64,000 bases of DNA, taken from NCBI RefSeq assembly GCF_045037415.1, contig NZ_CP173438.1; one strand, 5' to 3'. The stretch is from Escherichia coli (GTDB taxonomy: Bacteria > Pseudomonadota > Gammaproteobacteria > Enterobacterales > Enterobacteriaceae). A program made the position numbers. Positions 1-3,000 of this stretch are shown here, in pieces; within the stretch, counting starts at the first letter, position 1; each line of letters begins with the position of its first letter.

Positions 1-3000
1 CAGTGGAGTACCCGCGTTAGAGGTTGAAACGATAGCCAGTTTGCCATCGCTGTTTTTCACCAGCCAGGTCCAGCCAGAACCAAAGTTTTTGATCGCTGCA
101 TCAGTAAACTGAGCTTTGAAATCGGCAAAGCTGCCAAAAGATGCGGCGATAGCTTCAGCGACTTTTCCAGTCGGTTCGCCACCCGCGTTCGGTGCCAGGC
201 AGTTCCAGTAGAAAGTATGGTTCCAGACCTGAGCTGCGTTGTTGAATACGCCACCTTCAGAGCTGCGAATAATCTCTTCCAGTGGTTTACCTTCAAACGC
301 GGTACCTTTGATCAGGTTGTTCAGGTTAGTGACATAAGTCTGATGATGTTTGCCGTAGTGATACTCGATGGTTTCCGCAGAAATGTGCGGTGCCAGAGCA
401 TCTTTAGCATATGGTAGTGCAGGTAATTCGAATGACATTGCTACTCTCCTTTATTATTAATTTGCATACGTACAATAGCCTTATTGTGCGTATGGATAGG
501 GTAGCAAATTAAAAGGTGAGACAAAAGATGAACTTACCCTGTTGCCGTAACAACAGGGTAAAGTTTTAGCGAAGTGTTTTTGGGGTCATTACCCGGCGAG
601 CGCCAACATAGTGGCGCTGCCAGTAGTCTTCACTGAGAGAAGTGATTTGAATTTCCTGGCCCGTGCGCGGTGACTGAATAAATTTGCCGTTGCCGACATA
701 CACGCCGACATGATCGGCTGTACCGCGTCCCTGAGTACGGAAGAAGACCAGGTCGCCGTTTTTCAGTTCACTACGTTCGATTGGCGCTGCATCGCGCAGG
801 TGATACATTTCATTCGCCGTACGCGGAATACGAATTTTCACCAAATCTTTATAAGCGTAATAAACCAGACCGCTGCAATCAAAACCGGTACGCGGTGAGC
901 TGCCACCCCAACGATATGGCTTACCAATTTGCTGCATCAGTTTATTCATTGCCACTTTTGTGGCTTTTTGCACCTTCGCTTTGTGCGCGTCGGCAAGGGT
1001 TCCTGACGCGGCATTTTTGACTTTCACACAATGCGATTTATAGCCCTTACGTTTGGTACACTTTTCGGTAAAGCTGGCTGAGGCCGTTTTATTGACGGCG
1101 TGTTTGCTGCGAGTTTTGGCGTTTTTAGAAGCGGTAATGGAAGATTTTTTAACGGAAGAAGCGGTTTTGCTTTTGGTCGTACTTTTACTGGCGGCTTTTT
1201 TCGCTGTTTTCTGGCTGGCTTTCTGGGTCTTTTGGGTGGTTGCCGTGCTTTTCTTTTTATCTGCTTTTTTGGTGATATGAGTGGTAGCAGAACTCTCCCT
1301 GGCTTGCTTTGAAGCATGGGCCATAGGCGTTAAAGGCAGGGTGGTAAAAAGTAAAGCACAGAGCGTGATCGAAATACGGTTTATCCGCGCCACTGAGCGT
1401 CCCTCTGTTAAGGCAGGTCTATCATGCCTGCGTCTGATTTACAAAACTTGATGATTCTAATGCATAGAAGAAGAGAAAGTTAATAGCTTTTATTGTTAAA
1501 AAATACGTTTCGTCGGCGAGCGCAAAAAAATGCAGCAGTGAAAGCTAAAAATGGTTATAAATACGCCAGTTTGCCGTGCATCAGGGAAGAAACGAATATT
1601 TGAAATGCAACAAATAGAGCAAAGGGATAAAATAGCAAAAGCGTGATGAAAATGTTATTTTCCGATGCCGCACTGACCCGCTACAATGTCAGATTACTGC
1701 CGTAAAGAAGTTTGAGGAAGCAAGACAATGAGCACCACTATCGAAAAAATCCAACGCCAGATTGCTGAAAACCCGATCCTGCTGTACATGAAAGGTTCAC
1801 CGAAACTGCCGAGCTGCGGTTTCTCTGCCCAGGCAGTCCAGGCGCTTGCCGCATGTGGCGAACGTTTTGCCTATGTTGATATTCTGCAGAATCCGGACAT
1901 TCGTGCGGAACTGCCGAAATATGCGAACTGGCCGACCTTCCCGCAACTGTGGGTTGACGGCGAGCTGGTGGGCGGTTGTGATATCGTGATCGAAATGTAT
2001 CAGCGTGGTGAACTGCAGCAGCTGATCAAAGAAACTGCCGCTAAATACAAGTCTGAAGAGCCGGACGCGGAATAATCCGTCCTGCAATACTGACGGATGC
2101 GAACGGGCATCCGTCAGTCCTTTCTCTATCCCCAATCCAGCCCTTGTGGCGAACTTGAAAATCCCGCCTCACGTAACAGCGTAAACATCGGCGTTTGCCG
2201 GACCGGTAGGTCATTCACTTCTGTTAGCGTAAAGCGCAGCCGTGGTTCGCGACTAGACAGCGGTCGGCTGTTTAAAGGCGCGAAGAAACCAGTCGCGGGT
2301 CGCCGGCGAAAACACGTCCGGCAGGGGCGATGAAGGGTTTGGATTATTTGCCATTAACGCTATTCCCCGTGAATATCATGCATGATGCGTGGAATAGCCT
2401 CACTATAGATGCCTGAATCATTGCATGTCATCAGGCATCGACTCGATTACACCTCTGCGGCGGCAGGTAGTGGCCAGCCTCCCAGACGTTTCCAGCGGTT
2501 GACGATTTCACAAAACAGCACAGCAGTGCGTTCGGTGTCGTACAGCGCGGAGTGCGCCTGGGTGCTGTCGAAGTCCATGCCAGCTGTCTGGCAAGCCTTT
2601 GACAATACGGTTTGTCCGAGTGCCAGCCCGGCCAGTGCAGCAGTGTCAAAAGTGGCGAAAGGGTGGAACGGGTTACGTTTCAGTGAGGCGCGTTCTGCGG
2701 CGGCCATCATAAAGCTGTGATCGAAATTGGCGTTGTGCGCCACCATAATGGCGCGGTTACAGCCGCTCGCTTTAATACCTTTACGTACAACTTTAAAAAT
2801 TTCGTGCAGCGCCTCGTACTCGCTGACCGCGCCGCGATCGGGATCGTTCGGATCAATGCCATTGAAGGCAAGGGCCTCTGGTTGCAAATTTGCGCCGACA
2901 AATGGTTCGACGTGGAAATGTAATGTGGTGTCCGGCATCAGCCAGCCTTGTTCATCCATTTTCAGGGTGATGGCGGCAATCTCAAGCAGCGCATCGGTTT

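Follow-up and report, generated by a model that had tools for sequence, protein, structure and literature searches.

In Escherichia coli K-12, MepH (YdhO) is an NlpC/P60 (C40) DD-endopeptidase, whose activity on 4-3 cross-links is known from work on the K-12 enzyme (Singh et al. 2012, as cited in PMC11211486 and PMC7516022). Its placement in the periplasm rests on signal-sequence prediction (PMC7516022), and its turnover requires Prc and, in part, NlpI (PMC8996183; PMC11789061). MepS (Spr) is a paralogous NlpC/P60 endopeptidase that is 36% identical to MepH in the domain. The other two redundantly essential endopeptidases, MepS, a lipoprotein of the outer membrane, and MepM, which has its anchor in the inner membrane (PMC7516022), are membrane-anchored, and MepH is soluble. 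Our literature search on the N-terminal region of MepH found no experiment or paper addressing the tract described below.

Here we analyze the mepH gene of an E. coli strain [NZ_CP173438.1] contained in a stretch of 64,000 nucleotides, hereafter the window, with emphasis on the basic low-complexity tract that follows the signal peptide of its product.

The mepH locus and its product

The assignment of the ORF to mepH in the initial annotation was borne out by its 100% identity to RefSeq-annotated mepH genes, by the Pfam domain of its product and by the gene order grxD-mepH-sodB, which is the same as in BW25113. The window gene shares its locus and architecture with the K-12 gene, and the two proteins are 99% identical over aligned residues. 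They differ in that the window MepH (275 aa) contains QKAS at residues 57-60 and Gln54, while the K-12 protein (271 aa) lacks these four residues and has Lys at the position of Gln54. Judging by identity and synteny, the window MepH is the orthologue of the K-12 peptidoglycan DD-endopeptidase.

The gene is well known: it was found, annotated as mepH, in 5,425 of 5,426 E. coli genomes, and the exact window allele is already present in hundreds of RefSeq genomes (e.g., strain SK1144), with a near-identical one in CFT073. It should be mentioned that mepH is a dispensable gene and that three complete genomes carry a broken copy of it. Consensus scans outside the coding sequence gave a terminator-like hairpin and a sigma-70-like promoter match (Table 1), matches of the latter kind being no more numerous than in shuffled sequence. 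No Rfam match was found over positions 1..3200.

Table 1. Features of the mepH region, in window coordinates
Feature	Position	Strand	Description	Basis
Terminator-like hairpin	533..562	-	13 pairs, then T run; directly after mepH stop codon	Consensus scan only
mepH (ydhO) CDS	566..1393	-	275 aa; GTG start; stop codon 566..568	ORF list
NlpC/P60 (C40) catalytic domain	593..925	-	Residues 157-267	Pfam PF00877, PDB and Foldseek matches
Conserved helix	926..997	-	Residues 133-156; leads into catalytic domain	Conservation 0.83, AlphaFold2 model
Conserved beta-hairpin	1016..1072	-	Residues 108-126, FTEKCTKRKGYKSHCVKVK; Cys112 and Cys122	Both Cys invariant in 23 sequences
Polycationic low-complexity tract	1070..1312	-	Residues 28-108; core 41-108 at 1070..1273	
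Pair of 9-nt direct repeats	1157..1165 and 1127..1135 (span 1127..1165)	-	ACCGCTTCT; 30 nt apart	
7-nt direct repeat, second copy	1208..1214	-	CCAGAAA; 12 nt downstream of first	Repeat scan
12-bp segment	1215..1226	-	CCAGAAAGCCAG; QKAS, residues 57-60; in window, absent from K-12-type allele	Alignments
7-nt direct repeat, first copy	1220..1226	-	CCAGAAA; flanks indel	Repeat scan
Signal peptide	1313..1393	-	Residues 1-27, MARINRISITLCALLFTTLPLTPMAHA, followed by S	Read from sequence; cleavage site inferred
Sigma-70-like promoter match	1454..1483	-	TTAACT, 18-nt spacer, TAGAAT; upstream of mepH	Consensus scan only
Shadow ORF, +1 frame of mepH	1024..1317	-	97 aa, K/R/P-rich; not a gene	
Antisense shadow ORF	1053..1280	+	75 aa, 80% hydrophobic or Ala; not a gene	
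Antisense shadow ORF	1100..1312	+	70 aa, G/F-rich; not a gene	

The match of PF00877 to the catalytic domain scored 125.9 bits (cut-off 23; E = 8e-37). Cys173, within the DCSG motif, and His228 are invariant in 83 homologues, and the third catalytic position, His131 of MepS (mature numbering, PMC11211486), aligns to Gln240 of MepH. Foldseek aligned MepH over 145-150 columns to the NlpI-bound MepS of entries 8xud and 8xup; in the model, the helix in front of the domain is the counterpart of MepS helix alpha-1. The hairpin preceding this helix consists of strands at residues 108-113 and 121-126, with a pLDDT of about 91 for residues 111-120 in the second of two AlphaFold2 models (see below), and its two cysteines probably form a disulfide.

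A polycationic tract follows the signal peptide

The signal peptide of MepH ends in an AxA-type site, has no lipobox and contains a helix at residues 7-15 in the AlphaFold2 model. The tract behind it, to which the peptide quoted in the initial annotation (KKADKKKSTATTQKTQKASQKTAKKAASKSTTKSK, residues 42-76) belongs, consists for 79-82% of Lys, Thr, Ser and Ala (82% in residues 41-108) and has a net charge of +19 to +20 (+19 for residues 41-108), hydrophobic residues making up 6% of positions 41-108. Its Shannon entropy per 30-aa window is 2.3 bits, compared with 3.6-3.9 bits in the catalytic domain.

Two AlphaFold2 models were obtained. The first was built from 23 close orthologues (mean pLDDT 47) and likewise showed no structure in the tract, disorder and shallow alignment being not separable at this depth. 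In the second, based on an alignment of 83 diverse sequences (mean pLDDT 79.5), approximately residues 28-105 have pLDDT values of 50-58 and no DSSP elements, in comparison with 94-98 for the catalytic domain. PDB contained no solved structure spanning residues 1-125, PDB sequence and fold searches gave matches only from about residue 125-145 onward, and the only Pfam hits in the tract were weak low-complexity ones below the threshold (Presenilin, E = 0.007). The tract is thus predicted to be intrinsically disordered, modelled as coil by AlphaFold2.

The earlier description of residues ~30-125 as a basic, probably disordered tract therefore holds as far as charge, low complexity and predicted lack of structure are concerned, but the tract ends near residue 108 and not 125: residues 108-126 do not belong to it, since they form the conserved beta-hairpin, which is predicted with confidence and in which two cysteines are invariant.

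Open reading frames overlapping the tract

Three ORFs overlapping the tract in other frames had been noted before and regarded as artefactual. They are indeed present, and RefSeq annotates mepH alone in this place. Their attribution to nucleotide repetitiveness, however, was not upheld, because the tract contains no tandem repeat and codon shuffles reproduce the open frames. Tandem Repeats Finder (score of at least 30) detected no arrays in the tract DNA, and the sole result of a repeat search was one 15-nt pair, at chance level. The number of exact direct repeats of at least 7 nt was 10, versus 11 +/- 3.9 in codon shuffles, and the open alternative frames reached 95 codons, versus a mean of 87 in codon-shuffled tracts. 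The same three analyses led us to reject tandem repeats as the source of either the ORFs or the length polymorphism described below.

The sense strand of the tract is poor in T (12% overall and 6% at codon position 2, versus 23% in the domain). Because the Lys, Thr, Ser and Ala codons used here contain hardly any T, stops are missing across the tract from three of the five other frames (zero in sense frame +1 and zero in antisense frame 1, among others), and the three overlapping ORFs result from these stop-free frames. The shadow ORFs are by-products of T-poor codon composition and not of nucleotide repeats. ORFs overlapping low-complexity, T-poor coding tracts should accordingly be discounted as composition artefacts.

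Length dimorphism of mepH in E. coli

Variation of the linker length between strains had been suggested, and alignment of mepH alleles did reveal two lengths, so that the linker is not equally long in all strains and the suggestion stands; the variation, however, comes down essentially to one biallelic indel of four residues, which distinguishes 275-aa and 271-aa proteins. Using junction-specific searches in complete genomes, we found the long allele in 1,845 and the short K-12 allele in 3,526 of them, i.e., roughly 34% and 65% of 5,371 classified genomes; 5,423 genomes were probed, and 52 matched neither probe. In 5,424 of 5,426 genomes, the remaining 221 nt of the tract matched with an identity of 95% or more and revealed no length variant, and MepH shows few amino-acid differences within E. 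coli. Thus, E. coli mepH has a common four-residue length dimorphism at a slippage-prone site.

The long allele, which is that of the window, looks ancestral, since four residues occupy the indel site in E. albertii, in Citrobacter and in further genera. Simple duplication as the origin of the 12-bp segment is ruled out because this segment is not a copy of its flanking sequence. The most likely cause of its loss would be replication slippage between the two CCAGAAA repeats. Long as well as short alleles were found on three SNP backgrounds, differing by 0, 3-4 and 6 SNPs, and all four gametes were observed for the indel with SNPs on both of its sides (nt 111 and nt 295). The presence of the deletion on three backgrounds points to recurrent slippage or to short-tract recombination: either the loss arose more than once, or short recombination tracts may have moved the deletion. 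As E. coli recombines, the homoplasy could reflect short conversion tracts instead of repeated slippage. In either case the indel is homoplasic and therefore unsuitable as a lineage marker.

Besides this dimorphism, rare E. coli alleles were found in which 9-61 residues of the region are deleted in frame. The 9-nt direct repeats of the tract are the end points of one of them, a 10-residue deletion (P0010). In another rare allele (P0013), from a single assembly, GCA_900448615.1, a compensated frameshift at two homopolymer runs leads to 52 residues being read in the +1 frame. Only rare sequences from draft genomes or metagenomes carry the large-deletion alleles, which were represented by one to three contigs apiece in the cases looked up; none was found in 5,424 complete genomes, and they were thus rejected as common alleles. 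The rare deletion and frameshift alleles may be deleterious or artefactual. If real, they imply that a precise length or sequence of the tract is not strictly required.

The tract in other Enterobacteriaceae

In 20 Enterobacteriaceae orthologues the segment between the signal peptide and the helix has a length of 95-113 aa, a net charge of +23 to +29 and 5-12% hydrophobic residues. At the same time, majority-residue conservation is 0.44 in the tract versus 0.94 in the domain, and 40 of the 80 tract columns contain gaps in an alignment of 23 sequences from this family. Relatives with 29-56% identity also possess a basic tract, of 79-180 aa and with a net charge of +7 to +35. Comparison of these sequences suggests that selection has kept the length and positive charge of the tract and not its sequence.

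Discussion

Taken together, we propose, with a probability of about 0.6, that the tract is a disordered polycationic region of MepH, with shadow ORFs arising from T-poor codons and a slippage-type indel, that serves as a flexible tether. Its composition and the conservation of its bulk properties suggest such a role, and the fact that length and charge are kept while the sequence is not makes a tether the most likely function. Mature MepH would begin with ~80 residues, almost only Lys, Thr, Ser and Ala, followed by the two-cysteine hairpin, the helix and the NlpC/P60 domain. The positively charged tail would hold the soluble enzyme on the anionic peptidoglycan and envelope, and its flexibility would let the catalytic domain reach cross-links. 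The QKAS indel would be functionally near-neutral for such a tether.

Two other explanations concern the DNA of the tract itself. That one or more of the ORFs at 1024..1317 (-), 1053..1280 (+) and 1100..1312 (+) is a real overlapping gene seems hardly credible: they do span 70-97 codons, and in the assembly with allele P0013 MepH includes a stretch read in the +1 frame, but a codon-shuffled tract gives open frames equally long, RefSeq has mepH only here and neither an Rfam nor another feature was found, the tract is the least conserved part of mepH across genera, and the antisense products are a mere hydrophobic mirror of the K/T/S/A codons. It is likewise very improbable that the tract is a hypervariable locus of the contingency type, with repeats and diversifying selection driving length variation between strains. 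The common homoplasic indel at short direct repeats and a frameshift at the same spot in strain FCI23 are what such a locus might display; however, the repeats are dispersed, 7-9 nt long and at codon-shuffle density, with no tandem array among them. Moreover, 5,371 of 5,423 genomes fall into two length classes, complete genomes show no length variants elsewhere in the tract, MepH proteins of E. coli differ by few amino acids, and MepH is periplasmic and not surface-exposed.

The remaining alternatives concern the function of the peptide. It is rather unlikely that the tract serves as a passive spacer, without any function by itself, which drifts freely and whose composition is simply what a secreted unfolded segment tolerates. 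Its hypervariable sequence, half of whose alignment columns contain indels, the in-frame deletions of 9-61 residues and the frame-shifted version in E. coli assemblies, and the dispensability of mepH agree with this view. Against it, length and charge stay within a narrow band (95-113 aa, +23 to +29) in 20 orthologues despite sequence turnover, a basic tract is kept in relatives down to about 30% identity, and none of 5,424 complete genomes carries the large deletions. A more demanding version of the functional view, which we consider only tentatively, is that the tract is a selected module of ~100 residues and a charge of ~+25, conserved across Enterobacteriaceae, that concentrates MepH on anionic peptidoglycan or membrane, or else sets its susceptibility to Prc. 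If this is true, its sequence tolerance is so wide that even the +1 frame (P0013) still encodes a basic disordered peptide. Finally, the tract might be the element through which Prc and its adaptor NlpI recognise MepH or initiate its proteolysis, in the manner of the MepS N-terminus. In favour of this, degradation of MepH is Prc- and NlpI-dependent (PMC8996183; PMC11789061), MepS binds NlpI through its disordered N-terminus, which folds upon binding (PMC11211486), and proteolysis in general is favoured by unstructured segments. We nevertheless regard it as unlikely: much of MepH proteolysis is NlpI-independent (PMC11789061), the contacts of MepS with NlpI are hydrophobic (L24, F31, L34, V35, V38; PMC11211486) whereas hydrophobic residues make up 6% of the MepH tract, and the MepS helix that binds NlpI corresponds structurally to the MepH helix 133-156 and not to the tract. 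Homology of the tract to the NlpI-binding segment of MepS was rejected, since BLASTP aligns only the catalytic domains (MepH 149-270 with MepS 71-186) and the N-terminal regions are dissimilar.

The charge and length of the tract are kept across genera, and a role of the tract in localisation or in Prc/NlpI-controlled turnover would bear on cell-wall homeostasis.

In comparison with known systems, MepH and MepS have much in common: MepS is redundant with MepH and is also a substrate of Prc/NlpI, and its helix alpha-1 is likewise preceded by a disordered N-terminal segment. However, the MepS segment comprises about 40 residues, is not basic and binds NlpI through hydrophobic residues, while the MepH tract, with about 80 residues and a net charge of +19 to +20, is almost without hydrophobic residues and cannot be aligned to it. 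In addition, MepS is an outer-membrane lipoprotein. With low-complexity disordered linkers in general the MepH tract shares the biased composition, the absence of predicted structure, the fast turnover of sequence and indels, the conserved bulk charge and length, and the in-frame indels mediated by microhomology. Such linkers, however, join two folded domains, whereas the tract forms the N-terminus of mature MepH and has one free end; it is therefore better called a tail or tether than a linker.

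The mepH Gene and Its Locus

The low-complexity tract belongs to an already known gene and is a feature of a known kind (coordinates are listed in the table below). The initial annotation had placed it in the NlpC/P60 peptidase MepH (YdhO), and this was borne out by a Pfam NlpC/P60 domain at residues 157–267 (125.9 bits; cut-off 23), by RefSeq annotation and by synteny. The mepH DNA was matched in 5,425 of 5,426 complete Escherichia coli genomes and carries the annotation mepH, peptidoglycan DD-endopeptidase MepH, there. The window gene is 100% identical to that of several strains and 99.9% identical to that of CFT073. 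It lies between sodB (downstream) and the divergent grxD (upstream), and the gene order grxD-mepH-sodB is identical in K-12 BW25113. The stop codon is directly followed by a terminator-like hairpin and a weak promoter-like match lies upstream of the gene; an Rfam search of window positions 1..3200 gave no match.

Coordinates of the mepH gene, its features and the overlapping ORFs
Feature	Window position	Strand	Description
mepH ORF	566..1393	–	275 codons, GTG start
Cys-hairpin FTEKCTKRKGYKSHCVKVK	1016..1072	–	residues 108–126; conserved across Enterobacteriaceae; beta-hairpin in AlphaFold2 model
12-bp segment CCAGAAAGCCAG	1215..1226	–	residues QKAS 57–60; from alignment
Overlapping ORF	1024..1317	–	
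Overlapping ORF	1053..1280	+	
Overlapping ORF	1100..1312	+	

Several side observations were made on the gene. One E. coli genome contains a second, plasmid-borne mepH copy with the long-allele junction (the window type, see below). In the alignment, the third catalytic residue of MepS (the His of FVHAS) corresponds to Gln240 in MepH (window about 674..676; FIQSP); distant relatives have His or Glu at this position. The MepH homologues of Salmonella bongori and S. enterica (P0055 and P0058) have 11 extra residues (MIACLLTEDCSV...) preceding the conserved ARINK start, probably because the start was assigned to a codon too far upstream.

Composition, Predicted Structure and Conservation of the Tract

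In residues 41–108, Lys, Thr, Ser and Ala make up 82% (19 K, 12 T, 13 S, 12 A), the net charge is +19 and hydrophobic residues account for 6%. Entropy in 30-residue windows is about 2.3 bits in the tract versus 3.6–3.9 bits in the catalytic domain. Composition, charge and entropy thus confirm the basic low-complexity tract described by the initial annotation, whose quoted peptide corresponds to residues 42–76. It had been given as residues ~30–125 and probably disordered; the low complexity and lack of predicted structure hold, and the end has to be moved from residue 125 to near residue 108.

AlphaFold2 was run twice: on 23 close orthologues the mean pLDDT was 47, too low to be informative, and on 83 sequences, among them distant relatives taken from a representative search, it was 79.5. 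In the 83-sequence model, residues 28–105 have no secondary structure (pLDDT 50–58), the hairpin has a pLDDT of about 91 in block 111–120 and about 80 in block 121–130, helix 133–153 reaches 87–98 and the catalytic domain 94–98. The strands of the confidently predicted hairpin would face Cys112 against Cys122. These two residues, invariant in 23 Enterobacteriaceae sequences and missing as a pair from most of the more distant relatives, are likely to form a disulfide in the periplasm. PDB searches by sequence and by fold matched only the C-terminal 125–150 residues of MepH, the top matches being NlpC/P60 domains, including MepS in complexes with NlpI and Prc; no solved structure covering the tract was found.

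Conservation within MepH is lowest in the tract. In the 23 Enterobacteriaceae sequences the majority-residue fraction is 0.44 in the tract, 0.79 in the hairpin, 0.83 in the helix and 0.94 in the domain, and 40 of 80 tract columns are gapped. The segment from the signal peptide to the helix comprises 95–113 residues in 20 orthologues, with a net charge of +23 to +29 and 5–12% hydrophobic residues, and in relatives at 29–56% identity a signal peptide likewise precedes a basic low-complexity tract (79–180 residues). Bulk properties kept without sequence conservation usually mark a functional disordered region.

Overlapping ORFs

All three overlapping ORFs reported earlier are present in a mechanical ORF list; their attribution to nucleotide repetitiveness did not hold. 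Tandem Repeats Finder reported no array in the tract, exact direct repeats of at least 7 nt are at chance level (10 observed vs. 11 ± 3.9 in codon-shuffled versions), and the open alternative frames survive codon shuffling at equal length (observed 95 codons, shuffled mean 87), which rules out a repeat origin. Every stop codon needs T, or A on the opposite strand. Since hydrophobic residues are missing from the tract, T is scarce at codon position 2 (6%; 12% over the whole sense strand), and three of the five alternative frames therefore lack stop codons. The ORFs are artefacts of composition, not of repeats, and the antisense products are a hydrophobic mirror image of the K/T/S/A codons.

A Homoplasic 12-bp Deletion in E. 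coli

The initial annotation expected the linker to vary in length between strains. It is indeed not identical in all of them, and two gene lengths, 828 and 816 bp, were found among the ranked E. coli matches sampled; the variation amounts in essence to a single recurrent deletion of four residues. The QKAS segment is missing from the alignment in K-12, O157:H7 and many other strains. Junction-specific megablast probes, designed to prevent seeding by the other allele, revealed the long junction in 1,845 and the short (K-12 type) in 3,526 genomes (about 34% and 65% of the 5,423 carrying the full gene); neither probe matched in the remaining 52. For the rest of the tract, a 221-nt probe matched 5,424 genomes (at least 95% identity and 80% coverage), and no length variants outside the indel site were found among them. 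As a technical trap in similarity searches, megablast and blastn queries of 95–111 nt within the tract (window 1150..1274) were unmatched even in identical genomes, apparently because a low-complexity filter masks the A-rich stretch; 52-nt and 221-nt queries work.

Four residues occupy the QKAS position in E. albertii, Citrobacter and other genera and the insert is not a copy of adjacent sequence, which points to the long allele of the window as ancestral; the K-12 form would then be a derived deletion. Comparison of 19 alleles over the whole gene revealed three distinct SNP backgrounds, each with both alleles.

Long and short mepH alleles on shared SNP backgrounds
Background	Short	Long	SNP differences
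1	K-12, O121	95NR1, O111:H8	0
2	O157:H7, M7638	TUM13936	3–4
3	GN05064	the window	6

All four gametes were seen between the indel and SNPs on both sides (nearest at nt 111 and nt 295). Given these and the three backgrounds, the deletion is homoplasic. The segment opens with CCAGAAA (1220..1226) and is directly followed by a second CCAGAAA (1208..1214); direct repeats arranged in this way are classically prone to slipped-strand deletion. The homoplasy is most simply read as repeated slippage, the alternative being short recombination tracts.

Rare and Broken Alleles

A large protein database contained rare E. coli variants with in-frame deletions of 9–61 residues in region 1016..1200 (loci L010 and L011). 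Those looked up occurred in one to three contigs each, in draft and metagenome data, and none was found among 5,424 complete genomes. In protein P0010, a 30-nt loss is exactly bounded by two 9-nt repeats ACCGCTTCT. In P0041 and P0051, a 183-nt loss at GCCGC microhomology removed the Cys-hairpin with both cysteines; it is present on both long and short backgrounds. P0013 (NCTC assembly GCA_900448615.1, L009:404-704) has lost 1 nt from an A6 run and gained 1 nt in an A4 run lying 153 nt further downstream, so that 52 tract residues (window about 1113..1270) are read in the frame of ORF 1024..1317; the product remains basic (+22) and Pro/Lys/Arg-rich. Either the frameshift is real and compensated, or both changes are sequencing errors in homopolymers.

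In three complete genomes mepH is broken: FCI23 has a frameshift that falls exactly on the indel hot spot, ST2747 has a deletion reaching into the tract from the 5' untranslated region, and TUM2805 has lost most of the gene. This is consistent with the redundancy of MepH with MepS and MepM (PMC11789061; PMC11211486) and with its individual dispensability.

Possible Function of the Tract

The tract is shown here to be an N-terminal, polycationic, predicted-unstructured segment of a secreted protein, and the comparisons show its length and charge to be under constraint. A literature search found no paper dissecting it. Peptidoglycan and envelope surfaces are anionic. MepH is periplasmic by signal-sequence prediction; MepS is a lipoprotein of the outer membrane, and MepM has an inner-membrane anchor (PMC7516022). 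The anionic surroundings of an enzyme without a membrane anchor lead us to propose that the tract is most likely a flexible electrostatic tether, which would hold MepH on its substrate.

Two main rivals to the tether were considered. The tract may be a functionless spacer, or it may be a recognition element for the Prc protease, which sets MepH levels partly via the adaptor NlpI (PMC8996183; PMC11789061). The latter possibility is weakened by a structural match: MepH helix 133–156, not the tract, corresponds to the MepS helix that binds NlpI. Moreover, MepS relies on hydrophobic residues of its disordered N-terminus to bind NlpI (PMC11211486), whereas the MepH tract shows no similarity to this N-terminus and is almost devoid of hydrophobic residues.
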